From a candidate division WWE3 bacterium (lineage in GTDB: Bacteria; Patescibacteriota; WWE3; UBA101185; UBA10185), in contig JBPOHV010000001.1 in assembly GCA_052035175.1 (NCBI GenBank), positions 1-39,568 of the forward strand: 39,568 nt of DNA, written 5' to 3'. Position numbers and translations under genes: made by a program. Positions 2,408 through 35,139 of this stretch are shown one piece after another. Each line of letters opens with the position of its first letter. Positions within the stretch are counted from its first letter, which is position 1. Under the pieces are notes generated by a model. That model had not been told where the DNA came from and did no database searches. It was given only the letters and a program-made list of their open reading frames with translations.

Positions 2408-4062
2408 ATACCACGTTTAAACATTTTTTCAAAAGTAGATTTGTTAATAAACAAAGCAACAGGTCTGCCGTGTGGACAAGTATAATACATATGCTCGTCA
2501 GAAAGTTTCTTTACAAGGTTACTACGTTCAGACAGTGTTAATTTCTCACCTGCCTTGATAGCAGATCGACAAGCTAAATATGCAAGTGTACGCTTGGACA
2601 AATCATCAATAAACTTTTTGTTATTCGAATCAATCACCTCAATTAGCAACTCTTTGATATTATGATCAGAGTAAATCGAGGGTACACTGTTTATCTTATA
2701 TGTACGCTCACCAAATGATTCTATGACAAAGCCTAATTGAGCAAAGTCTACCAAATATGAATCAAACAAAAGAGACTGTGCTACAGACAAGTCAAAAATA
2801 ACTGGATTCAATAAATCTTTTGACGCAGACTGTTCTTGTAATATTGCAAATTCATCTAAAAACTGTGAGTATAAAATACTTTCATGCGCAGCGTGTTGAT
2901 CAATAAATAAAACCCCCTCATCAGTCTCGACGATTAAATAGGTATCAAAAACTTGCGCAATATTTTCAGGTACATCTTTTAACAACCATTTACTTGTGGA
3001 GTCTTTTAAAGTGTTAAAAACATAATTCGATTTTGATCCCCCATATATATCGGTGTTTAGATATAAGCTTTGTTGCAAATTGGCATCTGCAAGAGCAGAC
3101 TTTATTACAGTTGACAATGTAACTAAGAGCTCGGCCTCATTGAGAATAGAAATGCTTTCTTTTTGAGGATGTATGTTTATATCGAGTTCGTGATTGGGAA
3201 GATTAATATATAAAATATAAAATGGGAATTCTTTGTTAAAGATTAGATTGCTATATACCTCACGCATAAGCTTGTTAATATTGGTATTTTGAATTAATCG
3301 ATTATTAATAAAAACAATTTGACGGTCACGAGATACAGTACTTATTTGTGGCGCTCCAATAACTCCAGAAATACTTACTGTCTCACTTTTATACTCTATC
3401 TGTACAAGCTTGTTAGAAACAAAATCCCCATATATTTTTGAAACTTTATTAACGAGTGTATCGTCTGGTTCTATTGTCAAAACTAACTTGGAATTGTGAA
3501 ACAGTTGAAGCATGATACATTCGGTGGAAAAAGCAAATGCCTGAATAAGCTTTGTTATCTTTATAAATTCTTGAGATGCATTATTCAAAAACTTTTTACG
3601 AACAGGTAAATTGAAAAATAAATCTGATACAGATATAACAGTCCCAGTATCTATGTTACAAATAGATTGCGATATAAATTCGCCGCCAGAAATCTTGAGT
3701 GTGTGAGCGATAGAATCATTTGCCGATTTGCTAGTGATTTCAAAATTGGAAACTGTGCATATGCTATGCAAAGCTTCACCGCGAAATCCCAAGGTACTAA
3801 TATCTTCTAAATCGGACACTTTATCTAATTTGCTTGTTGTATGAGGTAAATAACATAACTGCAAGTCTTCATATGACATTCCGCAACCATTGTCACGAAC
3901 ACGGATCAAACTTTGACCTCCGTCTGTAACATCTACAATAATTTCTGTTGCACCAGCATCGAGCGAATTTTCAATTAATTCTTTTACAACATTCACAGGA
4001 GAATGTATTACTTCACCGGCAGCTATTTTGGCTATAACATCTTTATGCAGTTTCTTTATCAT
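2404..4062 (-). CDS. mutL: DNA mismatch repair protein MutL
   Basis: IAAGEVI, VKELIENSLDAGA, DNGCGM, TLGFRGEAL; C-terminal DQHAAHE, ACR and CPHGRP motifs. Confidence 0.97.
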   Translation of the reverse strand: MIKKLHKDVIAKIAAGEVIHSPVNVVKELIENSLDAGATEIIVDVTDGGQSLIRVRDNGCGMSYEDLQLCYLPHTTSKLDKVSDLEDISTLGFRGEALHSICTVSNFEITSKSANDSIAHTLKISGGEFISQSICNIDTGTVISVSDLFFNLPVRKKFLNNASQEFIKITKLIQAFAFSTECIMLQLFHNSKLVLTIEPDDTLVNKVSKIYGDFVSNKLVQIEYKSETVSISGVIGAPQISTVSRDRQIVFINNRLIQNTNINKLMREVYSNLIFNKEFPFYILYINLPNHELDINIHPQKESISILNEAELLVTLSTVIKSALADANLQQSLYLNTDIYGGSKSNYVFNTLKDSTSKWLLKDVPENIAQVFDTYLIVETDEGVLFIDQHAAHESILYSQFLDEFAILQEQSASKDLLNPVIFDLSVAQSLLFDSYLVDFAQLGFVIESFGERTYKINSVPSIYSDHNIKELLIEVIDSNNKKFIDDLSKRTLAYLACRSAIKAGEKLTLSERSNLVKKLSDEHMYYTCPHGRPVALFINKSTFEKMFKRGI

Positions 4063-10634: not shown

Positions 10635-12398
10635 TTAAGTCAATTGCTTTGACAACTCTTGCATCTTGACTGTAAGTTTTGAAAGTTGCTCAACATCCTT
10701 TTGTGCCTCGGCAAGTTTAACAGATTTACCCAGAACTACAAGCTGTCGCTTGGTATATTCGAGTTTTAGCCTGCTACTAGTCTTCTTTAGCTCTGTAACA
10801 ACGGCCTGAGGATCGCTTACGTCAATATTAAAGTTCCATAGCATAAGCTCAGTTACTAGTTTGGTAAGATCGGCAGATAAAGTAGTCACCAAAGACTTTA
10901 AAGTAGTCGCTTCAGAGTTTTGCTTTAAATACAGCGCAATCTCATTATATATAGTTCTAAGGTCGATATTCACAAATACCTCTGATGGTACGTCATAAAC
11001 AAAATCTCTCGCTATAGAAATATCCGCTTGAAACAATAATGCAATAAATAGCTTTTCGGTGTTTGACATACCTGGCGATGGTTGTAAGGCCGCAGGCTCA
11101 ATAAGAGAACTTTTCTTTGCAACATTTGGTGATTGTAAGCGCTCAAGTACGATTGAAACCGAGACATCTAGAACTTGTGAAATAATTTGTGCATAGTGGT
11201 CTATCAAAACTTTACTCTTAATATTCACAAAATAAGAGCGCATAGCATCTAAAGCTGCATCTTTCCCGTAAGGGGAGGCGGTATCCATAGACTTCGCCAA
11301 GGTTGTTATTACATAGTCATAATACAATATGGTATTTCTGATTATAGTAAAAGCATTGTCTGGATCTTTTTGAACCAATTCATCTAGATCTTTATAACCA
11401 CTGGGTATAATAATGCACTTAATTGTAAAATCCATATCTTCTGCCAACGTAATAGCTTTACGTGCAGCTGTCATACCAGCACTATCAGAATCAAAACAAA
11501 ACGTGATGTCTTTTGTATATCGAGAAATAGCAGCTAAATGCTGCTCGGTCAAAGCAGTTCCTAGCGGAGCAACCACGTTATGTATACCTATTTTTACACA
11601 ACTTATGACATCCATCGGCCCTTCTACAACCAATGCACCCTCTTTACGCATATGCATTTTTGCCAAATGGAGACCGTATACAAAGTTGCTCTTTTTAAAT
11701 ATTTCTGTTTCTGCAGTGTTTAGATATTTTGGTTGTTGATCTGGCGTAAGCGCCCGGCCAATAAAACCGAGTACTTGGCTGTCTATTCCTATTAAAGGGA
11801 ACAGAACTCTGTGTCGAAACTTATCAATATAACCATTACCACTAGTTCTCTTTACGGTAACGCCAGCGCGAGACATATCAACATCACTATATTTACGCGA
11901 TCGCAAAGCTTTATATAAAAAGTCCCATTCTTCTGGAGCATAACCAAGTTGAAACTGTGAAATAAGCTCTTTGGTTAGTTTACGTGTGTTCAAAAAATAA
12001 TCTAAGCCGTCTTTTCCAGCACTATGCGTCAACAAAACTTTATTATAAATTTTTGCAGATAAATCATTTATTGCATAAAGCTTAGATTTCTCGTCATGAG
12101 ATTTATAATCTTGGGATTCTCCAGAAATATCGACGCCAGCTTTATCAGCCAATTTCTTTTTGGCTTCATGAAAAGTCAAACCTTCAATCTTTTGTATAAA
12201 TGCAAATATATCTCCGCTTTCATTACAACCAAAACACTTATATATTCCAATATCTGGTGAAACCATGAAAGATGATGTTTTTTCATTATGAAATGGGCAA
12301 AGGCCTTTGTAATTCTTTCCGCTTTTTTTCAAATCGACATAACTACCCACAATATCAACTATGCTAAGTTTGTGTTTTATTTGGGAGATTGTATCCAT
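10635..12398 (-). CDS. dnaG: DNA primase
   Basis: CHC2 finger CPFHNEKTSSF...CFGC, PKYLNT, TOPRIM VVEGPMDV and CFDSDSAG; upstream of rpoD. Confidence 0.97.
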   Translation of the reverse strand: MDTISQIKHKLSIVDIVGSYVDLKKSGKNYKGLCPFHNEKTSSFMVSPDIGIYKCFGCNESGDIFAFIQKIEGLTFHEAKKKLADKAGVDISGESQDYKSHDEKSKLYAINDLSAKIYNKVLLTHSAGKDGLDYFLNTRKLTKELISQFQLGYAPEEWDFLYKALRSRKYSDVDMSRAGVTVKRTSGNGYIDKFRHRVLFPLIGIDSQVLGFIGRALTPDQQPKYLNTAETEIFKKSNFVYGLHLAKMHMRKEGALVVEGPMDVISCVKIGIHNVVAPLGTALTEQHLAAISRYTKDITFCFDSDSAGMTAARKAITLAEDMDFTIKCIIIPSGYKDLDELVQKDPDNAFTIIRNTILYYDYVITTLAKSMDTASPYGKDAALDAMRSYFVNIKSKVLIDHYAQIISQVLDVSVSIVLERLQSPNVAKKSSLIEPAALQPSPGMSNTEKLFIALLFQADISIARDFVYDVPSEVFVNIDLRTIYNEIALYLKQNSEATTLKSLVTTLSADLTKLVTELMLWNFNIDVSDPQAVVTELKKTSSRLKLEYTKRQLVVLGKSVKLAEAQKDVEQLSKLTVKMQELSKQLT

Positions 12399-14480: not shown

Positions 14481-14571
14481 TGGCGGAGGGAGTGGGATTC
14501 GAACCCACGTGTAGCTTGCGCCACGCTTGGTTTTCGAGACCAGCCCGGTATGGCCACTTCGGTATCCCTCC
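14481..14571 (-). tRNA. tRNA-Ser(CGA)
   Basis: GGAGGGA acceptor, loop CT-CGA-AA, long variable arm, TTCGAAT T-loop, G73, CCA. Confidence 0.96.
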
Positions 14572-18640: not shown

Positions 18641-18712
18641 ACATTAAGTATGACATCAAAAGTGTTTGGAAGGAATTCCTGGGTCACTAAACATCGCTAA
18701 TAATAACTCTAT

Positions 18713-18796
18713 ATGGTGGACCTTAACCAGCGATATTTCAACCGTCTATTGCAAGTAGTAATCCTTATAAACAAAAGTACTGTTAGTGTACAATAA
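18713..18796 (+). pseudogene. Orphan LSR C-terminal tail at the distal att junction (MVDLNQRYFNRLLQVVILINKSTVSVQ*)
   Basis: Same frame relative to the att core and same VDLN-x3-[WF]N-x-L pattern as the tail at 21522. Confidence 0.55.
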
Positions 18797-18809
18797 CAAA
18801 ATAAATACT

Positions 18810-19343
18810 ATGTACAATCCCTCACCGCAACAACAACAACAACTAGATCTCCTTTTTAAAATACTCGATTTAGCTAGTCAAAATAATATTCGATTATATG
18901 TTACTGGAGGATATGGGTTAGACGCCTTATATGGTGAATTGACAAGAAACCACAGAGATATTGATGTCTATTTACATACCAGTGATGAAGCGGGGTTTAT
19001 TAAAATATTAAATGCGCTTGGCTTTTCCGCGACTAGTCAGACCATAGGTGAAGTTAAAAAGAGAGAGTATAAAAATCCTGACTTTACAGACGAGTTCTCT
19101 ATCGAGTACGGAATTATAGAAGAAGGTATGAGGCTTATGAATACAACTTCCATAGCTGAGTATGTACCAACCACGCCTATTGGAGTATTAAATGGCAAAC
19201 CTATTTGGACATTTACTTTATTCGCGTTCAAAAAGATGCACACATTTAACAAGAGTCCTGCGGCAAGGCATACAGAACCCTATAGACACCAACACTGGCT
19301 TGATAATTTAATGCCTAAATTGGAGGTTAAATATGGAAAATGA
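18810..19343 (+). CDS. Nucleotidyltransferase, ANT(2'')-Ia/Lnu(A)-like family
   Basis: GGYGLDALYGELTRNHRDIDV matches the GG[WY]xxDxxxGxxTRxHxDxD signature. ATG 18810 chosen over GTG 18786. Confidence 0.8.
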   Translation: MYNPSPQQQQQLDLLFKILDLASQNNIRLYVTGGYGLDALYGELTRNHRDIDVYLHTSDEAGFIKILNALGFSATSQTIGEVKKREYKNPDFTDEFSIEYGIIEEGMRLMNTTSIAEYVPTTPIGVLNGKPIWTFTLFAFKKMHTFNKSPAARHTEPYRHQHWLDNLMPKLEVKYGK

Positions 19344-19893
19344 ATTACTTGAGCAACTAAAATTAATCTCTAAAGAACATATGGAAAAAGACAAATTTTT
19401 TCACGACTATGCGCATGCACTAGGGGTGTATTCCAATGTTGAAAAGCTACTGGAGCATGAAAACGGAAATAGACTTGCTTTACTTACCGCGGCACTTTTT
19501 CATGATATTTGTCGAGATCAAGAAGATCACGATAAGGTAGGTGCTAAACTGGCAAAAGAAATTTTAGAAGGAATTAAAGAGTTTCCAAAGGAACATTTAG
19601 ACTCAGTAATTGCACTAATCGAGAAGCACGAAGCAGGGCAGGTCACACAAGATCAAAAAATATTCTCGGATGCAGACAAAATGGAAGCATTTACACCACT
19701 TGGTTTTGCACGAGGTTTAATGATGTTTGCCGAATGGAAATATCCACTTAAAAAAGCCATTTTTACTTATGAGGAATTACTCAAAAAATGGTATAAAGGT
19801 TTTTATTTTGACGTGACTAACCACCTTGTAGAAACAAACTATTCGGAACTTAAAAAATACATCGATGAACTAAAAAGCAGATATAATTATTGA
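19333..19893 (+). CDS. HD-domain phosphohydrolase
   Basis: HDYAH, ALFHDI, IEKHE, DADKME; overlaps the upstream gene by 11 bp. Confidence 0.88.
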   Translation: MENELLEQLKLISKEHMEKDKFFHDYAHALGVYSNVEKLLEHENGNRLALLTAALFHDICRDQEDHDKVGAKLAKEILEGIKEFPKEHLDSVIALIEKHEAGQVTQDQKIFSDADKMEAFTPLGFARGLMMFAEWKYPLKKAIFTYEELLKKWYKGFYFDVTNHLVETNYSELKKYIDELKSRYNY

Positions 19894-19943
19894 TTTTTCC
19901 ATATTCCACTAAGTGTAAGAAATCCATAGAAGATTTAAGTATA

Positions 19944-20019
19944 TGGTGGACCTGAGGGGAATCGAACCCCTGCTCTCTACAATGCGAATGTAGCGCTTTA
20001 CCAACTAAGCTACAGGCCC
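19944..20019 (-). tRNA. tRNA-Ala(CGC)
   Basis: 76-nt cloverleaf, G3:U70 pair, arm CTACA-TTCGCAT-TGTAG, A73, CCA. Confidence 0.97.
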
Positions 20020-20143
20020 AAACTGCATACTTTACGCGCTCGCCTGGTGGCTAACGCACTTTACCAACTAAGCTACAGGCCCATGAAATGGGTAATGTAA
20101 GAGGAAGCGCAGCTGCGAAGCAGGAACAAGCTCTTACAGGCCC
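20020..20143 (-). repeat. Two partial copies of the tRNA-Ala 5' end with hairpin inserts
   Basis: 25-bp copy at 20059-20083 equals 19996-20020; 9-bp copy at 20135-20143; inverted repeat TGTAAGAG/CTCTTACA at 20096-20103 and 20131-20138. Confidence 0.85.
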
Positions 20144-21521: not shown

Positions 21522-21626
21522 TTGGTGGACCTAAACCCCAATACTTGGAACCATTTGTTTGACTGGGTTTTGAAATGGGGAAACCTAATACCAAACAAGG
21601 ATTTTGCCTTGGATTATGGTAAATAA
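21522..21626 (+). other. Alternative (excised-state) integrase tail LVDLNPNTWNHLFDWVLKWGNLIPNKDFALDYGK*
   Basis: In frame with LSR codon L505 once 21522 is joined to 26170; no start codon of its own. Confidence 0.7.
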
Positions 21627-21710
21627 TCTACCGCAGGCTATCACATACAGTGATTGGAACTATCCCGCATCACGTATCAAACACTATAGAAGTGGTGATA
21701 AAATTACATA

Positions 21711-22259
21711 ATGAAAGTCTTAGCTTTATTAATTTGGCCGTTATTTTTCATAACTACATTTTTTTTGTTCAATAAAGCTAAACTAAGCATTTTCAATAAA
21801 ACATATAGTAATTTAGGTTCTAATATAAAATACGGCAAAATGTTTAACTTTATTCTTGTTATAACGGGGTTAATTCAACTTCTATTTCTTACGTACGTAT
21901 TAGTAAATAATAAAAGTCAGTATTCCATAATCGGTGTTATGGGTTTAAGTAGCCTGATAGTTACAACAATTGCGGGGATTTTTACGGGAATTATCGCAGA
22001 ACACCATAACGAAAAAATTCACATGAAAATAGCGATAATAGGTTTTACAGGCGCAATAATTGGCTACCCTTTATACGGATTGTATCTGTTTAATGCAAAC
22101 TACAGTGTTGGCGTATTCATGCTTATCTGGGGTTTAATTGTAATGCCTTATCAAGCGTATCGTCATATGTCTGGTAAAAAAATCTATGCTATAAACGAAG
22201 TTTTTATGTTTCTGGGTGCTTTTTTCACCAATATTGCTTTGGTTTGGTTATATTTTTAA
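21711..22259 (+). CDS. Multi-TM membrane protein, DUF998-like
   Basis: TYSNLGS...MFNFILVITG, conserved His (KIHMKIA), 5-6 TM segments; TGa-TAAAAT 6 nt before the ATG. Confidence 0.6.
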   Translation: MKVLALLIWPLFFITTFFLFNKAKLSIFNKTYSNLGSNIKYGKMFNFILVITGLIQLLFLTYVLVNNKSQYSIIGVMGLSSLIVTTIAGIFTGIIAEHHNEKIHMKIAIIGFTGAIIGYPLYGLYLFNANYSVGVFMLIWGLIVMPYQAYRHMSGKKIYAINEVFMFLGAFFTNIALVWLYF

Positions 22260-22283
22260 TGTAGCCCTTTGGCTTACTGGAAA

Positions 22284-22838
22284 TTACAACTTTTTCATTT
22301 CAAATACTTTTCCCATAACTTCTTTCAACTTTTGTAAGTCTTTCGTATAACCTTTTGAAATTAGCCTATCTATAAGCATCGGTGCGCCTAGCACATGTTC
22401 TTTTTCAAGGACGATCAAAGCATTTTTTAACATTTTTTTGTCATTTGAAACCAAGAATAATTCGGGGTGATTTTGACACAGGGATATTAGGGCATAATCT
22501 GTGGCTGAAACTTTATTTCCTACTATATAAGCCAGTTTGTCATTTTCTTGTACTATCAATCTATTTTCTTTCCAATTAGGATCACCTGAATATTCTGAAT
22601 TAATAATATGACTTGTAAGAAACTTGTAATCTAAAGTCCTTGGACCATTTGCAAGTTCTAAAATAACTGAATTTGGAATTAAAAAAGTGGAATGTGCAGA
22701 ACCTTTTATGACATTAAGAATGTTTATACCGCAAAGTTTTTCCAATTCTTCAAAACGGCAGAAAGCACTGGTATCAATAAGGTAAACTTCTAATCCTTTT
22801 AAATTTGCAATTATCTTGTTATTGATATCGTAGGACAT
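22284..22838 (-). CDS. PIN-domain ribonuclease
   Basis: Acidic quartet D22 (LIDTS), E61 (SVILEL), D114 (SATD), D133 (VSND). Confidence 0.8.
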   Translation of the reverse strand: MSYDINNKIIANLKGLEVYLIDTSAFCRFEELEKLCGINILNVIKGSAHSTFLIPNSVILELANGPRTLDYKFLTSHIINSEYSGDPNWKENRLIVQENDKLAYIVGNKVSATDYALISLCQNHPELFLVSNDKKMLKNALIVLEKEHVLGAPMLIDRLISKGYTKDLQKLKEVMGKVFEMKKL

Positions 22839-22840
22839 TT

Positions 22841-23440
22841 TTAGAAAATTCGGATACGATCAGGGACAATGCTTAAACGGTATAAAAATTCCCATATGGT
22901 TAAACATAAAGTAACTACTTTGATTATTAACTTTACTAATTTGCCCACGAAGGAAAATTCCAATTGTTTTCTATTAAAACCAACACTTCCTAATAGCTGG
23001 AAGGGTATGCTTGCTATCAATTCTAAGATTTTACCAAGCCAGTAGAAAGGGTTCACTGTACGCAAGATTGCCATTGGAATGTCGCTTTCGTAATTACCGT
23101 ATGCCCTGTCAACCATGTCGATAAGTGCTTGGTATTCTATTTCATATCTGGATAAATTAAAGATATTTTCCATCATATCAATATGAACAACGGGACCACC
23201 TATAGCGGGCGGAGGGCAATAAGTTACGGAAGGATAAATATCGGCATCCATTAGCAACTGCTTAACTTTACCGGCATTCTTGTTTATTTGGTCCCGGATA
23301 GGCAAACTTTTGTCGTTATCAATAAGATCTGGGCTGAATTCCGCATATTCTACAGTAGAAAAGTATTTTGTTATAAGCTTTTTAAATAGTTCTAAAGACT
23401 TTCTGGAATTATTGTTATCAAAGATTGTCTTGTCTTTCAT
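22841..23440 (-). CDS. Hypothetical protein with C-terminal hydrophobic helices, co-operonic with the PIN gene
   Basis: 199-aa ORF with PPPAIGG and NPFYW motifs; stop is 2 bp before the PIN start. Confidence 0.7.
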   Translation of the reverse strand: MKDKTIFDNNNSRKSLELFKKLITKYFSTVEYAEFSPDLIDNDKSLPIRDQINKNAGKVKQLLMDADIYPSVTYCPPPAIGGPVVHIDMMENIFNLSRYEIEYQALIDMVDRAYGNYESDIPMAILRTVNPFYWLGKILELIASIPFQLLGSVGFNRKQLEFSFVGKLVKLIIKVVTLCLTIWEFLYRLSIVPDRIRIF

Positions 23441-23446
23441 ATGACT

Positions 23447-23489
23447 GGATTATAACACCGCTTATGCTTGTAACAATAAGCTATAATCC
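23447..23489. promoter_or_regulatory. Palindromic divergent promoter/operator inside the element
   Basis: GGATTATA (23447-23454) / TATAATCC (23482-23489) and GCTTAT/ATAAGC inverted repeats; each TATAAT is 8 nt before an ATG. Confidence 0.65.
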
Positions 23490-23495
23490 TATTAC

Positions 23496-24077
23496 ATGGA
23501 TACAATACAAGATAAAATTGGAAAAATCGGACCTGTGGAAATTGGTACACCCTATAAAACCGAAAAGGGCGGAACATATAAATATCCACTTCATCGGTTA
23601 ATAGAATTTCTTGACGTTAATGCAGACGACGAAGAATTTGTTGAACTGTTTTGCGAACGATTTAAATTTATTCCACGAAACCTTACAGAAGGTTGGGCAA
23701 AAGGATTTAAAGAAGAACAAGCACCAATAAAGGAAATCTACGAAAAACTTGAAAAGGGTAATTTGACAGAAGACGACATTAATCGCATAAACATAGAACT
23801 GGAACAAATCCACCCAAAGTTACATATACATAAAACTATGGGGCAAATAAATACAAATTCAGTTTACGAAACTTCAATTCATAAAAATTCTGTGGTTTCC
23901 ATTTGGGAAGATTTAAAAAACTATATCTTGGAAAAAAGTTATATCAAGCGTTGCCCCTACTGCGGAAATCCTTTTTTAAGGAATAAAATAAGACCACAGC
24001 AAAAATTCTGCTGTGACGAACACCGCTTAAAAGCACGCGAAGCAAGAAAACAGCAGAACAGAAGGCAGAAAAACTGA
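23496..24077 (+). CDS. Protein with a C-terminal zinc finger (CGNR/DUF6076-like), probable regulator
   Basis: IKRCPYCGNPF...KFCCDEHRLKAREARK; N-terminal EFL-x9-LFCERFKF. Confidence 0.65.
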   Translation: MDTIQDKIGKIGPVEIGTPYKTEKGGTYKYPLHRLIEFLDVNADDEEFVELFCERFKFIPRNLTEGWAKGFKEEQAPIKEIYEKLEKGNLTEDDINRINIELEQIHPKLHIHKTMGQINTNSVYETSIHKNSVVSIWEDLKNYILEKSYIKRCPYCGNPFLRNKIRPQQKFCCDEHRLKAREARKQQNRRQKN

Positions 24078-24129
24078 CCCCCCGGAAGACCCCCTGAAAG
24101 CAAGCCAATCAATCCGATAAAGTATCCCT

Positions 24130-24375
24130 GTGATACAAGATATATACAAAACAAAGGACCTTTTTGAAGCAAGCTATCTTCATTCAGCCGGATTACCCCT
24201 TAATGGATTAACCAATGGTGGTAATTACTATTGGTTTGAATTTTCCAATCAAAAACAATGCCAAGAACTATCTACAAAATATTGGGCTAAAAAAGCCAAC
24301 GGCAACATTAAAACATTTGTGGACAGTCTTAAGACGCTTAAAGACTTGGTTTTTTCAAGAAAAGGAGCGCTATGA
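24130..24375 (+). CDS. DUF5659-like small protein
   Basis: YKTKDLFEASYL...G..L...FEF...Y...K.LKDLVF pattern; GTG start. Confidence 0.6.
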   Translation: MIQDIYKTKDLFEASYLHSAGLPLNGLTNGGNYYWFEFSNQKQCQELSTKYWAKKANGNIKTFVDSLKTLKDLVFSRKGAL

Positions 24376-24500
24376 TTACTGTAAACGACGCAAGAAAGAT
24401 ATTGGGCACTTTTGGAAGTAATAAAACTGACGTTGAAATCGAAATGATAGTAAAATTTATTTATAAGTTAGGCGAAAGGGTGGTGCTGGATTTTGGGTAA
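24372..24500 (+). CDS. 42-aa protein upstream of the LSR (candidate directionality factor)
   Basis: MITVNDARKILGTFGSNKTDVEIEMIVKFIYKLGERVVLDFG; ATGA overlap with the upstream stop; AAAGGAG RBS; not in the ORF track. Confidence 0.65.
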   Translation: MITVNDARKILGTFGSNKTDVEIEMIVKFIYKLGERVVLDFG

Positions 24501-24657
24501 AATGTCCGAAATGCCCGACTTCAGGCATATCAAATTGCCGAAATTCCCGATTGAAGGGCATTGAAATTAAGCAAATTCAGCAGTTAAAGTGCTTAAAATG
24601 TCACAAATGTAGCACTTTTGGGGGTATAAATCCCACAAATCCCGCATAAAAGACTAT

Positions 24658-26241
24658 ATGGATACAAAAAACAAAAAAGCATTAATATATTGCAGGGTTT
24701 CATCAGAAAGACAGGTCAATGAAGGCCACGGACTGGATAGCCAAGAAAGTAGGTGCCGACAATACGCCGAAAACAAGGGATATGCTGTTACAGAAATCTT
24801 TCGTGACGAAGGTATTTCTGGCGGTTTGTTTGAACGCCCCGCCATGAAACAGTTAATTTCTTTCATGGATAAGACCCCTTTTGAAAAATATATAGTCATT
24901 TTTGATGACCTAACAAGATTTGCGCGTGACGTTAAAGTTCACTTGGAATTGAAACTGGCGCTTAAATCACGTGGCGCTACATTTGAATGCTTAAACTTCA
25001 ACTTCGAAGATAGCCCTGAAGGTGAATTAAGCGAAAACATTTCTATGGCTTCCGCCCAATATGAAAGGCAGAAAAACAGACGCCAAGTGATGCAGAAGCA
25101 GAAAGCCCGACTTGAAGCTGGTTATTGGTGTTTCTGTAATGCAGACGCCTTTAAATTCACCAAAGACCCCGTGCACGGGAAACTACTGGTCAGAAACGAA
25201 CCGTTCGCTTCAATTTACAAAGACGCCATTGAACAGTTTGAACAAAGAAAGTTAATAAGCAAAGAACAAGTCAAAGAATTTATCTATGCTGAATATCAAC
25301 GACTTAATTTGAAAAGAAAAAAACCCGGCAATAATACAGTTGAAAGAATACTTAAAAACCCCTTGTTCGCTGGATATGTCGAATATTTGCCTTGGGGTGT
25401 GACCAGACGACTGGGACATCACAAAGGTTTTATATCCCCTGAAACGTTTGATAATGTACAAGAAATCCTTGCTGGAAGGACTTTAAAACGTACACGCAAA
25501 GACTACAGCCTTGATTTTCCATTAAGGGGATATGTTTTATGCGCGGAATGCCAAGAACCAATTACCGCAAGTTGGTCAAAGGGAAGAACCGCCTACTACG
25601 CTTACTATTCTTGTAAAACGGTTGGTTGTAAAAACAGATATAAAACTATCAGAAAAATTAATATCGACGTGGAATTTGAAAAATTACTTGAAGAAACAAA
25701 AACGGCAGAAGAAATACTGAACCTTACAAAACGTATTATGCAAGAAGTTTGGAATAACCAAAAAGTTCAGTTTGAAAGCATAAGTTCCCAAAGCGAAGGT
25801 AAGAAACTGGCGTTACAGAAACAAATTGATGGCTTTATGGGAAGAATAGCCAATGCAACCAACGAACAGGTCATAAAGGCTTATGAAAACCAAGTGGAAA
25901 AACTGATGCAAGAAAAGACAGAACTTGAAACAGGCTTCAAACCTAATCCGTACACCGAAAGTCAGTTTGGAACCGCATTGAATAAAGTGTTTAATGTAAT
26001 ACAGAACCCCTTGTTACAGTGGAAAACCGACAATATTACGGATAAGGAAACGGTGTTAAATATGTATTTTAATGGCAAACTTAATTACGACTTAAATTAT
26101 GGGTTTGGAACCTCCACTTTGGCCCCTGAAATCAACTTAATCAAAGACTTCGGGGCACAAAAAGTTTCATTGGTGGAGATGAGGGGAATTGAACCCCTGT
26201 GTTGCAAGGCTGTTATGCAAAAGTATACAAGCTTATTCTGA
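24658..26241 (+). CDS. Large serine recombinase (integrase)
   Basis: Catalytic IYCRVSS, RPAMKQL, DDLTRFARD; recombinase domain; zinc ribbon LRGYVLCAEC...YYSCKTVGC; coiled coil. The last 23 codons are antisense to tmRNA. Confidence 0.95.
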   Translation: MDTKNKKALIYCRVSSERQVNEGHGLDSQESRCRQYAENKGYAVTEIFRDEGISGGLFERPAMKQLISFMDKTPFEKYIVIFDDLTRFARDVKVHLELKLALKSRGATFECLNFNFEDSPEGELSENISMASAQYERQKNRRQVMQKQKARLEAGYWCFCNADAFKFTKDPVHGKLLVRNEPFASIYKDAIEQFEQRKLISKEQVKEFIYAEYQRLNLKRKKPGNNTVERILKNPLFAGYVEYLPWGVTRRLGHHKGFISPETFDNVQEILAGRTLKRTRKDYSLDFPLRGYVLCAECQEPITASWSKGRTAYYAYYSCKTVGCKNRYKTIRKINIDVEFEKLLEETKTAEEILNLTKRIMQEVWNNQKVQFESISSQSEGKKLALQKQIDGFMGRIANATNEQVIKAYENQVEKLMQEKTELETGFKPNPYTESQFGTALNKVFNVIQNPLLQWKTDNITDKETVLNMYFNGKLNYDLNYGFGTSTLAPEINLIKDFGAQKVSLVEMRGIEPLCCKAVMQKYTSLF

Positions 26242-26567
26242 ATTTTCTTTTGAAGAAAAAGTTTCAGACCAACTTTTGATTTCTTCAGCAAGTAAAGTAG
26301 TTGTGCTTATTGCACTAGATAAATGTTGTTTACTAGACAACATAACCTCAAATCAGTTTTATAAGACAAATCTTTTCTCACCTGATTGAGAGAAAAGCTG
26401 CCCCCCACAAAGTGGGAATCGAAGATCTTATGCAAAAGCATAAGCCATTGCTGGTTCTTCAACTTGTGCGTATTCATTTGCACTTGTATTTGTTGAAAGA
26501 TTAACGAGGAATCAACACCTCAGCTTGCTCCTGCACAAAGAACTTACAGTCAAAGCCTGTCATCCCC
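26171..26567 (-). ncRNA. ssrA: tmRNA (one-piece, 397 nt)
   Basis: 5' GGGGATG pairs with CATCTCC-ACCA (G3:U70), T-arm AGGGG-TTCAATT-CCCCT, internal tag ORF, adjacent to smpB. Confidence 0.95.
26428..26481 (-). other. tmRNA tag reading frame (A)ANEYAQVEEPAMAYAFA*
   Basis: Resume codon GCA after TACAAGT; hydrophobic Ala-rich C-terminus; TAA stop. Confidence 0.8.
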
Positions 26568-32306: not shown

Positions 32307-32729
32307 TTATTTAGACGTGTAAGCCGTAACCAACTCTTCCAGCTTGGTCGCAGCTGCATCAAAGACTTCAGAAAATGTAGAAAAATAGCTTAAACCCAAA
32401 GAAGTCACAATAATTGAATAAATAGCTGCAAAACCCACAATTACTAAAAACCCATAAATAACATACGTCCAATTGGCACTTGCTGCTTTGAGACCTTCAG
32501 GGTTACCCATAGCTAAAGACATCTTTATAACTCCTACCAGAATCATTATTGTTAAAAGAACACCAGCCAAAAGTATGGCTGCATTAAATACTCTTTTGAA
32601 TGGGCACACCAAATATTCTGCGGGTATATCCTCATCGAGCGGAATAGTATTGCAATCAACAGCTGCAAATGCAACGCGCATATTCAAAAGCATTATAAAA
32701 AACATTAATGTATATAATATTTTTTTCAT
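32307..32729 (-). CDS. VirB2/TrbC-like pilin 5
   Basis: Signal peptide ending AFA, then TM - AMGNPEGLKAA - TM. Start MKKILY at 32729. Confidence 0.7.
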   Translation of the reverse strand: MKKILYTLMFFIMLLNMRVAFAAVDCNTIPLDEDIPAEYLVCPFKRVFNAAILLAGVLLTIMILVGVIKMSLAMGNPEGLKAASANWTYVIYGFLVIVGFAAIYSIIVTSLGLSYFSTFSEVFDAAATKLEELVTAYTSK

Positions 32730-32733
32730 AGAT

Positions 32734-33057
32734 TTAAAATCCAGGTGTACTGCTATTAATCTCGGCTGTTTGTACACCGATTGATTGTAAAATAGCGCCT
32801 TTTACAGACAACACACCTATAGAAACACACGCAGCAATTATACCCAAAATAAAGGCATTCCACGCTACTTCTGTTTTCTTTGGGTCACCTTCGCTGTGAG
32901 AATATAAAATTGCTGAATAAGCGATACTCATAATACCTATACCAAAACCAAGACCCATAAATAAATTTATCAACAAACCAGAAATGCCTGAGATTGTACT
33001 CAATGGTTCTGGATTTGGTACTCCGCTGCCTGTTAATGTATCAATAAGTTTATCCAT
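32734..33057 (-). CDS. VirB2/TrbC-like pilin 4
   Basis: TM - SEGDPKKTEVA - TM. Confidence 0.7.
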   Translation of the reverse strand: MDKLIDTLTGSGVPNPEPLSTISGISGLLINLFMGLGFGIGIMSIAYSAILYSHSEGDPKKTEVAWNAFILGIIAACVSIGVLSVKGAILQSIGVQTAEINSSTPGF

Positions 33058-33063
33058 ATAATT

Positions 33064-33609
33064 TTAATTTGGCTCACATGTACAACAATGTCCTGTCGTG
33101 CCACCCATGCAATTCTGTTCACAATAAGTATCAAAGTCACAAACTAAATGAAAACCTTGCACGCATTGAGGTTCAAAGCCTGGACAAGCACAAACCGAAT
33201 TCTCACAAGTAATTTGGCCTCCGCCGCCTCCGCCACCACCACCGCCGCCCCCGCTTGTAGATTGATCTTCACCTTCAAAGTTGGTTATACCGTTAATAAT
33301 AAACGTACCGCTATTAGTACCGAGTCCTTGAGGAATGTAGGCTTTAAAAGTCATTACAAAAAAGAGCATAACACCACCAACAACAGCGTAGGCGATTTTA
33401 TTTATACCCTTTTTAACATTGTCTGGAGTGCCTTGCGACACAATAAGTGCATCTATACCAAGAGCAATTTGATAAAAAACCAATGCCCACCCGATATAAA
33501 TAATCGCGCTTATAATAAATCCAAGTATATTCGCAATAGATAAAAACCTGCCGCCTAAAGGATCTACTATCGCATCTCCTAAGGCAGCAAGTCGAAATAG
33601 TCCATACAT
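33064..33609 (-). CDS. VirB2/TrbC-like pilin 3 with a Gly12 linker and a 10-Cys C-terminal domain
   Basis: TM - SQGTPDNVKKG - TM, then 12 Gly and 10 Cys in the last ~50 aa. Confidence 0.72.
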   Translation of the reverse strand: MYGLFRLAALGDAIVDPLGGRFLSIANILGFIISAIIYIGWALVFYQIALGIDALIVSQGTPDNVKKGINKIAYAVVGGVMLFFVMTFKAYIPQGLGTNSGTFIINGITNFEGEDQSTSGGGGGGGGGGGGQITCENSVCACPGFEPQCVQGFHLVCDFDTYCEQNCMGGTTGHCCTCEPN

Positions 33610-33624
33610 ATAATAATTACGCTA

Positions 33625-33670
33625 ACAAAGAGAAACAAACAGCCGTACCGAGCAGAATACTAGGTACGGT
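33625..33670 (-). terminator. Putative terminator/attenuator after pilin 2
   Basis: CCGTACC/GGTACGG stem (33643-33649, 33663-33669) followed on the minus strand by CUGUUUGUUUCUCUUUG. Confidence 0.5.
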
Positions 33671-33675
33671 TGTTG

Positions 33676-34023
33676 TTAATTTGTACCTGTACCACCAAAG
33701 TCTGTAACTCCGGTTAACTCCAAACTTCCACCGACGAGTTGAGGAATGATTACCTTCAAAACTCCGACGAAGAATAAGCCAACACCACCGACTATTGCGT
33801 AAGTTACCCATTGTTGAGCAGCATTAACTGCTTTTTCATCGCCTTTGGACATAACGTATTGAGCAAAACCAAATGCCAACATTACGAAAACCAAAGCCCA
33901 ACCTACGTAAATGATTGTATTGATAATAAAACCAAATATTGCAGAAAGGCTACCAAAACGATCTGTGAATGTTGGAACTGCTACTGGTATTGCATCTGCT
34001 AATTTAAATAAAGAATTCAACAT
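33676..34023 (-). CDS. VirB2/TrbC-like pilin 2 (candidate major pilin)
   Basis: TM - SKGDEKAVNAA - TM; upstream AAGGGGGTG SD-like sequence. ATG 34023 aligns with the start of its paralog at 33609. Confidence 0.75.
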   Translation of the reverse strand: MLNSLFKLADAIPVAVPTFTDRFGSLSAIFGFIINTIIYVGWALVFVMLAFGFAQYVMSKGDEKAVNAAQQWVTYAIVGGVGLFFVGVLKVIIPQLVGGSLELTGVTDFGGTGTN

Positions 34024-34056
34024 ATTGTTTATGTACACCCCCTTTTAACATTAAAT

Positions 34057-35139
34057 TTATGACGTACCGCCTAATACTGTGCTTATTATAATTCTTAATA
34101 TAGCTACTGACAACAACAAGAAAATCACTCCAAGGATTGCACTTGTCAGAGATCCCTGGCATTCTTGGACTTTCTTTGGATCACCCTGACTTGTACCCAA
34201 ACACCAGCCTGACTTTACAATATAAAATCCACCAATTGCCAAACCTGCAGGGAATAAAATAGAACCAACGGTTTGTAAAAATTCAAAAGGATCAACTATT
34301 TTAAATTCTGGATTAATACCAGGGAAAGGGTCACCAGGATTTCCCCCACCACCACCACCGCCACCACTTGAGTCATAAACACATTGCAATAATGTAGTGC
34401 CACAAGAACCATTATAAACTGGCTCACAATTATAATTCTCAGCGCAATCTCCTTGACCGCTACATTGGTCAAAACATTCAGCTACAGTACAATCATTGAA
34501 ACCCTCAGGACACTCATCTGGATAAACCATGCCACAAATAGAACCACCAGAACAATCTTCAGGACCATCACAACGATCTTCACAGCTAGCTTCTACCTGC
34601 ATACAACGTAAATAGGTATTTGGTGGTGCTGTACAACCCAATGTACCAGCATTAACCTGCATACACTCTTCAAAAGGATCCGGGCATGTAGAATCATCAT
34701 ACAGAACACATTCATCACTGCACATACTGCCATTACCAATTACGCACTCATAGTGAGGGTTTGCGCACGACACACCTGGTGCTACTAAATCACAATGATA
34801 AGGTGCTGTGCATGTATCTGGGTTAGTACCACAGCTATCTTCGCATTCACCGGGGGCTATAGGAAAACACTGATCTGTAAAATCATTAACACATACACCA
34901 TCTTGACAATAATCACCATTGTCGCAACAAGTACCAGAGCATGTCTCAAAATTACCACTACACCCAGATTCCATACAACCTGCAGTTGTGCAAACCTCTC
35001 CTGCTGCGCATTCTGGTGAACCGCACACACCAATAACATCGCAAGGATCACCATCTGCAGCGTACACGTTATTTGTAAAAATAAACAAGCCTGCAACTAC
35101 CAATAAGCTAATAAATATTTTGTATCTTTTATTCGTCAT
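34057..35139 (-). CDS. VirB2/TrbC-like pilin 1 with a 36-Cys N-terminal region and Gly8 linker
   Basis: Signal peptide (VYA), Cys-rich residues 33-253, 8 Gly, then TM - SQGDPKKVQEC - TM. Confidence 0.75.
   Translation of the reverse strand: MTNKRYKIFISLLVVAGLFIFTNNVYAADGDPCDVIGVCGSPECAAGEVCTTAGCMESGCSGNFETCSGTCCDNGDYCQDGVCVNDFTDQCFPIAPGECEDSCGTNPDTCTAPYHCDLVAPGVSCANPHYECVIGNGSMCSDECVLYDDSTCPDPFEECMQVNAGTLGCTAPPNTYLRCMQVEASCEDRCDGPEDCSGGSICGMVYPDECPEGFNDCTVAECFDQCSGQGDCAENYNCEPVYNGSCGTTLLQCVYDSSGGGGGGGGNPGDPFPGINPEFKIVDPFEFLQTVGSILFPAGLAIGGFYIVKSGWCLGTSQGDPKKVQECQGSLTSAILGVIFLLLSVAILRIIISTVLGGTS

Follow-up and report, generated by a model that had tools for sequence, protein, structure and literature searches.

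Large serine recombinases (LSRs) that insert genomic islands at the 3' end of ssrA, the gene for transfer-messenger RNA (tmRNA), have been described in Dehalococcoides, where the enzyme is DsiB (e.g. GenBank ACZ62382; McMurdie et al. 2011, PMC3146451). Fifteen of the 31 ssrA islands in that genus are without an integration module and were proposed to be either cis-mobilisable or fixed (PMC3146451). The authors suggested that DsiB may be complete only on the excised circle or beside an island that holds the "requisite 3' gene fragment", and they found the C-terminal overlap of the protein to be divergent (PMC3146451). According to a survey of 2015, tRNA genes were not among the known targets of serine integrases (PMC4383910). 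Here we analyze a 39,568-nt stretch of DNA from a candidate division WWE3 bacterium (contig JBPOHV010000001.1), hereafter the window (WIN), in which an islet of two genes lies at the 3' end of tRNA-Ala(CGC), near an LSR element resident at the tmRNA gene. Comparison with related sequences favors the view that the islet belongs to this LSR system as a module without an integrase. Our literature search found no description of the LSR family in bacteria of the candidate phyla radiation (CPR) or at tRNA genes; its use of tmRNA and of tRNA-Ala, -Arg, -Tyr, -Met, -Lys, -Leu and -Ser genes as targets was found in no paper beyond the work on Dehalococcoides ssrA.

The cis-mobilizable elements (CIMEs) of the accretion-mobilization system around ICESt1 and ICESt3 of Streptococcus thermophilus are reportedly flanked by att sites and devoid of integrase and transfer genes. 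Such elements would arise by decay or accretion and be moved by a related, integrase-bearing element. In staphylococci, the staphylococcal cassette chromosome (SCC) and pseudo-SCC cassettes at orfX/rlmH use the LSRs CcrAB and CcrC and form arrays, some members of which have no recombinase. ANT(2'')-Ia, the founding member of the family PF10706, is a classical integron cassette gene.

A two-gene islet between direct repeats

The window comes from a low-GC genome of ~0.9 Mb, as judged from the longest contig that carries window proteins. Loci and contigs fetched for comparison bear L-numbers. The islet and its boundaries comprise the following features.

18710 to 18723, + strand: distal 14-bp repeat copy TATATGGTGGACCT, putative attL core; exact match to 19940 to 19953; contains GTGGA
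18713 to 18746, + strand: putative P'-type arm ("A-type"); reads MVDLNQRYFNR in the LSR frame
18810 to 19343, + strand: cargo gene 1, nucleotidyltransferase (NTase) of the ANT(2'')/Lnu fold; PF10706, 1e-13
19333 to 19893, + strand: cargo gene 2, HD-domain phosphohydrolase, YedJ-like; PF01966, 4e-11; PDB 3djb and 3gw7
19894 to 19939, + strand: spacer from the HD stop to the core, putative right-hand (P-side) arm of the module; homologous to L087 1504 to 1557
19940 to 19953, + strand: proximal 14-bp repeat copy TATATGGTGGACCT, putative attR core; made up of the 3'-terminal 10 nt of tRNA-Ala and the 4 nt downstream
19944 to 20019, - strand: tRNA-Ala(CGC), the integration target; ARAGORN; Rfam tRNA, 72.7 bits

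As the first-pass annotation of this DNA had described, a 14-bp direct repeat brackets two cargo genes. The two copies are exact, with nothing between them but the overlapping open reading frames (ORFs) for the NTase and the HD hydrolase. The annotation had also stated that no integrase remains inside, and indeed neither Pfam nor tblastn detected a recombinase domain or LSR remnant in the islet. A complete member of the family carries an LSR at its right end that reads into the att core; the islet, 1.23 kb long, has no such gene, but its right boundary falls at GTGGA (19946 to 19950) in the tRNA-Ala acceptor end, as in complete members. The duplicated portion of the tRNA is only 10 nt. Over the 3' 29 nt, tRNA-Ala(CGC) is identical to the tmRNA 3' end at 26 positions (repeat family D6), which bears out the earlier count of three differences between the two arms.

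The weight of the repeat was assessed with random 36-nt segments of the window, each examined for a same-strand exact match of at least 14 nt anywhere in the window. Such a match was present for 2.1% of segments; if the search is restricted to the few kilobases 3' of one of the six tRNA/tmRNA genes, the chance becomes ~0.01 to 0.02 by our arithmetic. Because random segments match as well at this rate, the 14-bp repeat on its own is suggestive, not overwhelming, and no proof of insertion. Scans with Rfam and for promoters and terminators added nothing further.

A chance level of ~2% gives some room to a reading in which LSRs play no part: the repeat would be fortuitous or the scar of another recombinase, such as a lost tyrosine integrase, and the NTase and HD genes would be ordinary chromosomal neighbors of tRNA-Ala. 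The islet does not differ in GC content from its flanks, which agrees with this reading, as do two homologous contexts, an HD gene in L090 that across many samples keeps a stable place beside a tmRNA-like end lacking an arm, and a distant NTase homologue in L089 that is plainly chromosomal. On the other hand, neither a tyrosine integrase nor a fragment of one occurs anywhere in the window, and the crossover of an LSR suits a short, 10-nt tRNA duplication better than does the identity block typical of tyrosine integrases.

The resident element and the attachment site of its family

The neighboring element provides the standard against which the islet can be compared.

21522 to 21631, + strand: attL of the resident element (site C); core TTGGTGGA and P' arm encoding the excised-form tail LVDLNPNTWNHLFDWVLKWGNLIPNKDFALDYGK
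24658 to 26241, + strand: LSR, 527 aa; Resolvase, Recombinase and Zn_ribbon_recom domains
26171 to 26567, - strand: tmRNA gene (ARAGORN), attB of the resident element; attR core TTGGTGGA at 26170 to 26177

The LSR at 24658 to 26241 is the sole recombinase of the window, and its last ~23 codons (…SLVEMRGIEPL…) correspond to the tmRNA 3' end read in antisense, the integrated form of the gene. At site C, the frame at 21525 reads LVDLNPNTWNHLFDWV; the encoded tail scores 41 to 43 bits with the hidden Markov model (HMM) for family tails, and the site matches the strict DNA pattern given below. Its arm is 98.5% identical over 66 bp to that of L001, a locus whose LSR gene is 82% identical. These matches indicate that site C is a genuine attL and that the resident element spans ~21522 to 26177. 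Like complete members, the element has its LSR at the right end, reading into the att core. Its att repeat is only 8 bp. Its accessory genes encode a 193-aa protein, a DUF5659 protein and a 42-aa ORF. The 42-aa ORF (24372 to 24500) lies directly upstream of the LSR, a position kept in L001, L006, L007, L013, L015 and L028, and is adjoined by the DUF5659 gene (24130 to 24375); it is a candidate for a regulator or directionality factor.

The window LSR has ~3000 homologues, mostly from Patescibacteria (CPR). Among the best 120, most end in LVEMxGxEPxS-like sequences, the antisense of a tRNA or tmRNA 3' end, and four end in LVDI(L/A)xNxWNx(L/I)xx(W/Y)(V/I) instead. We confirmed 551 LSR relatives in genome contigs and fetched and examined 80 loci, which belong to CPR phyla and to Alpha- and Gammaproteobacteria. 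In these, the gene that ARAGORN called at the end of the LSR ORF was tmRNA or a tRNA for Ala (UGC, GGC or CGC), Arg, Tyr, Met, Lys, Leu or Ser. When a profile was built from the second type of tail, it found one copy a few kilobases upstream of the LSR in ~30 loci, at 15 to 45 bits against a noise level below 10. The location of this tail upstream of the LSR implies that attP lies inside the LSR gene. On the circle, the LSR ends in the conserved tail (consensus V[DE]-x5-WNQ[IL]ExY[IV]F), which after integration stays behind at attL, so that the LSR gains it only upon excision. The first-pass annotation had tied its case to such tails, and tails of the form V[DE]-x5-[W]N are indeed present on LSR homologues when the element is excised. 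The swap of tails upon integration could act as a directionality switch.

At the DNA level, the pattern GT[GC]GA[CGT]-N15-TGGAA[CT] occurs 31 times in 1.37 Mb, always on the LSR strand, and all 31 matches are true attL-type sites except possibly one (L071). Comparison of attP with attB in 20 loci left GTGGA as the one block that the two share throughout. These alignments place the family crossover in GTGGA at the tRNA/tmRNA CCA end, which is where the 14-bp repeat of the islet sits. That members of the family target tRNA-Ala, including the CGC isoacceptor, and cross over at this position agrees with what had been proposed from the window. A search for dyad symmetry in 22 reconstructed attP and 20 attB sites gave peaks only at tRNA T-arms and terminator hairpins.

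Some further features of the family arms were seen. The tail WNQ[IL]ExY[IV]FxWY is strongly conserved (window 21525 to 21600, L006 7426, L024 5784), and AAC serves as its Asn codon in almost every arm, even though the genomes are AT-rich. In L022, a 21-nt repeat (3683 to 3709 and 11476 to 11502) consists of the core and the 3'-terminal 14 nt of LSR coding sequence and lies left of attL; no further LSR remnant was found upstream in that locus, and the repeat may stem from a tandem copy that existed previously.

Site A as a putative element-type arm

The distal repeat copy and the sequence that follows it (site A, 18710 to 18746) were compared with these arms. The frame from 18716 reads MVDLNQRYFNRLLQVV, and the tail reading of site A is MVDLNQRYFNRLL. 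Both the core and the spacing fit the family, with TTCAAC in place of the usual TGGAAC 15 nt after GTGGAC; the variants TCGAAC, TTGAAC and TTGGAC occur naturally in authentic arms. The tails of sites A and C share 7 of 15 residues, among them V-D-L, which the tRNA-Ala 3' end forces.

Stronger evidence comes from L087, the closest relative, in which both cargo proteins are 73% identical to those of the window. Site A and L087 1558 to 1588 are identical at 28 of 31 positions (90%), whereas third codon positions of the adjacent genes agree at only 47 to 50%. Such a difference argues for constraint, the arm being kept by selection as a DNA site. Site A is also in register with arms upstream of the NTase in L088, L085, L098 and L099; in the alignment of the five genomes, window included, the arm lines up together with a -10-like box and the start of the NTase gene. 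We infer that site A is an arm of the family type and, from its conservation, that it may still be a working recombination site. The parallel between the tails of sites A and C, to which the first-pass annotation had drawn attention as an orphan integrase tail, therefore deserves credence because of positional homology with arms in other genomes and not because of its own score, which is close to noise: by these comparisons the tail appears real by context and weak by sequence.

We considered whether site A could be a decayed remnant of a tRNA T-arm and acceptor, and rejected this since, by eye, neither pairing nor similarity extends past the 10-nt end. The spacer at 19894 to 19939 shares the block TAAGAAATCC with L087 and contains an in-frame stop at 19916 to 19918. 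Its interpretation as the last codons of a lost LSR is unsupported, since the stop at 19916 intervenes and the basic residue is displaced by one to two codons from that of the family motif K-x3-V[DE].

The first-pass annotation had also raised the possibility that the islet is a satellite mobilized in trans by the LSR 5 kb away, at 24658. In this reading, the tmRNA-specific enzyme of the resident element would excise and integrate the islet by way of the near-identical tRNA-Ala and tmRNA arms. This LSR is the only candidate inside the window, and the B' arms of tRNA-Ala and tmRNA differ at just 3 of 29 nt. In addition, sites A and C share TGGTGGACCT-AACC, and an HD homologue in L096 lies behind an arm very close to that of this LSR (AATACTTGGAACCA..TGTTTGA). 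However, along the stretch conserved in the clade of the window, L001 and L096, site A matches 11 of 21 specified positions by one count and differs at 12 of 21 by another, and TGGAAC is missing from it. The spacer left of site B is also unlike the P arm of the LSR at 24658. Finally, the retention of the resident arm at 98.5% over 66 bp, against 82% for the LSR genes, implies tight specificity. We therefore consider mobilization by the LSR at 24658 highly improbable, and the earlier suggestion of this enzyme as the helper found no support.

Homologous cargo in other genomes

The NTase, for which an alternative GTG start exists at 18786, has only 7 detectable homologues. Its PDB matches, AadB and LnuA, are confined to the N-terminal region, and its NCBIfam scores fall well short of the Lnu and ANT(2'') cut-offs and of every resistance-gene cut-off. 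The start of the HD gene overlaps the NTase stop, a translational overlap, and only four HD homologues are detectable. Neither cargo gene is carried by any of the first 84 LSR loci fetched (80 genome-contig loci plus L001 to L004). Scanning viral contigs for the LSR family yielded four or five full-length relatives on contigs of 13 to 59 kb, none with the cargo, as seen from a summary table only. A metagenome scan with the NTase alignment recovered only distant homologues (30 to 45% across the greater part of the protein), beside which neither arms nor tRNA ends were seen. Some of these distant homologues have direct repeats on both sides (L100, ~9870 and ~10600; L101, ~3900 and ~4610; L111/L112, on either side of the NTase match), ~35 nt long with GTTAGAAC- or GTTCTAAC-like cores, which recall integron attC cassette arrays.

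The closer homologues lie in contexts that resemble the islet. In L087, the order is NTase, HD, spacer homologue, core, A-type arm and an unrelated gene. Thus, the half made of HD, spacer and core is joined to tRNA-Ala in the window and to an A-type arm in L087, which points to site-specific exchange at the core; the half made of core and arm is joined in the window to chromosomal flank. L096 (contig from ERR8482638) has a true arm (DNA profile, 17 bits; closely similar to that of site C), then the HD gene, 5 nt and the tmRNA 3' end, with an 11-bp repeat. In L088, the NTase lies between two strict-pattern arms, both with tail frames cut by stop codons, and in L099 the arm has a one-base insertion. 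L098 shows a degenerate, arm-like stretch upstream of the NTase and a non-Ala-like tRNA end 10 nt past the NTase stop. Cargo homologues are thus found elsewhere in integrase-less modules bounded by genuine family arms, as the first-pass annotation would lead one to expect. True arms around the homologues in L088 and L096, arms in register in five genomes, and conservation of the arm in L087 at a different junction all argue against a repeat unrelated to LSRs, and we regard that reading as improbable, notwithstanding that the tail and DNA scores of site A are near noise.

LSR-less islets of one gene also lie just outside the complete elements in L001, L006 and L024. The one-gene islets (L001 2217 to 3272, L006 6423 to 7425, L024 4949 to 5783, L096 700 to 1416 and L088 1398 to 2015) measure 0.6 to 1.1 kb and are bounded by family arms or tRNA/tmRNA ends, the arms within the arrays of L006 and L024 being near-identical.

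The islet could also be a dead relic, the first-pass annotation having named a sister element with a deleted LSR as its other possibility: a complete sister LSR element at tRNA-Ala would have lost its recombinase and core genes, leaving its useful left-end cargo between inert sites. In keeping with this, the gene that directly follows the arm is the NTase in every case, and cargo occupies that position in complete elements. Decay is visible as well, in the stop-interrupted tail frames of L088 and in L085, where the order is decayed arm, NTase, tRNA fragment and tRNA-Ala(CGC), with the core changed to ATAATAAGCC; the link between NTase and tRNA-Ala(CGC) is thus common to L085 and the window. 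L022, which retains just 14 nt of an LSR 3' end, demonstrates that such truncation is possible, and small CPR genomes readily lose DNA. Against a relic, no LSR pseudogene is present in the window islet, in the L001, L006 and L024 islets or in any NTase or HD module, and the cargo is absent from the 84 LSR loci. The HD gene ends 5 to 57 nt from the core in four of five HD contexts (window, L087, L090 and L096), which would require repeated precise deletions or one old deletion. Nor does neutral decay predict an arm conserved at 28 of 31 positions when synonymous sites are saturated. These points favor a module that has done without a recombinase for a long time. Taken together, we think a dead relic rather unlikely.

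A probable non-autonomous module with a constrained att site

We favor the reading, with a probability of roughly 0.55, that the islet is a non-autonomous, integrase-less module whose att site is still constrained. The module would have inserted at the CCA end of tRNA-Ala(CGC) through the kind of site-specific recombination used by the neighboring LSR family. Site A would then represent attL, in which the old downstream flank of the tRNA is joined at GTGGA to the P' arm, and site B (19894 to 19953) would represent attR, in which the right end of the module is joined to the tRNA body. Mobility would be expected only with a cognate LSR, and probably a directionality factor, provided by another element; this helper would be an LSR specific for the A-type arm, encoded outside the window, rather than the LSR at 24658. 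Excision would give the following products.

Spacer to 19939, TATATGGTGGACCT and 18724 onward: predicted circle junction ...GATTTAAGTATATGGTGGACCTTAACCAGCG... of a 1.23-kb circle
Flank to 18709, TATATGGTGGACCT and 19954 onward: predicted empty site ...AACTCTATATGGTGGACCTGAGGGG...

Several observations weigh against this interpretation. For the repeat by itself, chance was put empirically at ~2% per tRNA end. The site A tail scores 4 to 6 bits with the HMM, compared with 15 to 45 for family tails; with MVDL fixed, 1.2% of window-derived peptides score as well (p=0.012), and the DNA profile without the core places site A in the top 7% of the null (p=0.07). Since no P-arm consensus could be defined, the spacer at 19894 to 19939 is not scorable as a half-site. 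Apart from the window, only L087 yielded an A-type arm; exact and degenerate scans of viral and metagenome contigs gave none. No LSR gene reading into such an arm was found, so that its cognate recombinase is hypothetical. The L087 contig (Logan SRR22387770) is only 1.7 kb long, and its junction possibly reflects an array formed by a newer LSR-bearing element rather than movement of the islet. Lastly, the linkage of the NTase to tRNA-Ala(CGC) in L085 fits long vertical inheritance of a fixed element. Stable linkage to tRNA-Ala in relatives, without a repeat, was the pattern that the first-pass annotation had set against its own proposal; L085 shows it insofar as no intact repeat is present, but a decayed arm remains there. 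This link speaks for long residence rather than recent movement.

It is conceivable that LSRs of this family in CPR bacteria service a pool of recombinase-less cassettes of one or two genes, stacked at tRNA/tmRNA CCA ends, a broader proposal that we hold to be doubtful. A cassette would be made up of a P' arm and a promoter, followed by a gene whose end lies a few bases from the GTGGA core. Such a system would be the serine-recombinase counterpart of the integron, with the arm doubling as a spare C-terminal exon for the adjoining LSR gene.

If the arm works, the islet would be a minimal mobile unit of 1.2 kb, comprising two genes and two half-sites, that a serine recombinase moves into a true tRNA gene. 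It would then offer a compact system for determining the least element-side DNA that an LSR needs, and would also raise the question of whether the swap of C-terminal tails on integration controls directionality. If the islet is merely a relic, it is an ordinary scar, yet one that marks tRNA-Ala(CGC) as a second target of the family in a very small genome.

Surroundings of the islet

A second, partial copy of the target lies next to the live gene.

20047 to 20083, - strand: degenerate partial tRNA-Ala copy (repeat family D5); 5' 28 nt identical at 27 of 28 positions, then CCACCAG-like

This copy is directly upstream of the live tRNA-Ala gene and was missed by Rfam. Its homologue in L085 (3467 to 3560) carries a 28-nt insertion and is likewise situated upstream of tRNA-Ala(CGC). 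A 58-nt tRNA 3' fragment stands between the NTase and the live tRNA-Ala(CGC) of that contig. The exact ends of two contigs that carry NTase homologues are formed by tRNA-Ser(CGA) (L085 2 to 92 and L088 1 to 90). In the window, tRNA-Ser(CGA) is at 14481 to 14571, 4.3 kb left of the NTase, and the intervening genes are unrelated. The interval from tRNA-Ser(CGA) to tRNA-Ala(CGC) may be a variable region.

We also considered whether the region from the NaCa gene through tmRNA could form one large array at tmRNA. This was rejected because only 10 nt separate the end of the NaCa gene from the start of its neighbor, which has the same orientation, and because no further cores or arms occur between 20084 and 21521. 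Farther away, at 32307 to 35139, two ORFs weakly match a type IV secretion pilin (PF18895, below the cut-off); they sit among large proteins without a family match, to the right of smpB.

Comparison with known systems

The islet does not show the features of a remnant tRNA island of the tyrosine-integrase kind: no such integrase gene or pseudogene is present in the window, and only 10 nt of the tRNA are duplicated, whereas the displaced 3' fragment in such islands usually extends into the T arm. It resembles the CIMEs in being flanked by att sites and free of integrase and transfer genes. In contrast to the islet, CIMEs depend on a tyrosine integrase and stand in tandem with their helper at the same att site; the LSR element nearest to the islet is at tmRNA, 1.5 kb past the tRNA-Ala gene, and has a different arm type, so that the two are not in tandem. 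Tandem cases do exist in L001, L006 and L024.

The likeness to SCC cassettes lies in where they insert, at a conserved gene's 3' end and by means of a serine recombinase, and in the fact that some members keep repeats without a recombinase. SCC differs in its protein-coding target and large cassettes, and in that its recombinase gene does not lie across the att site and undergoes no swap of tails. The window LSR matches CcrB weakly (NCBIfam, 6.6e-18, far below the cut-off). Integron cassettes are comparable as mobile units of a single gene that have no recombinase of their own and are inserted serially beside a fixed site, and the PDB match of the NTase to AadB is a further point of likeness. 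In integrons, however, the recombinase is the tyrosine recombinase IntI acting on folded attC sites, whereas LSR-type arms and the CCA end of a tRNA or tmRNA gene form the boundaries here, and every LSR-less module appears to carry its own promoter.

The closest likeness in architecture is to the DsiB islands. Here, as there, an LSR gene of ~530 to 540 aa overlaps the att site at its 3' end, with its stop in ssrA or in the next island; the tmRNA 3' end is the point of insertion, and the repeat there starts with TGGTGGAG; and islands occur in tandem. The likeness is documented by architecture, not by sequence. What the first-pass annotation put forward is in essence what the authors of the DsiB study had already suggested. 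By contrast, the islet has a true tRNA gene (Ala-CGC) as its target and a CPR bacterium as its host. The islet holds two genes in 1.23 kb, compared with several kilobases, and its repeat is 14 bp, compared with ~20 bp; it lacks the ~20-bp ssrA repeat, and the resident element, although at ssrA, has a repeat of 8 bp. The six-gene module of the Dehalococcoides islands (DsiB, DsiA, a RecF-like protein, ParB and Mom with an embedded tRNA-like gene) is absent from the islet, and the accessory genes of the resident element (the 193-aa protein, DUF5659 and the 42-aa ORF) are not DsiA, RecF, ParB or Mom. Finally, the excised-form tail is strongly conserved here. The architecture is therefore one already known in outline from Dehalococcoides, from which the tRNA-Ala target, the small size and the conserved tail set this locus apart.

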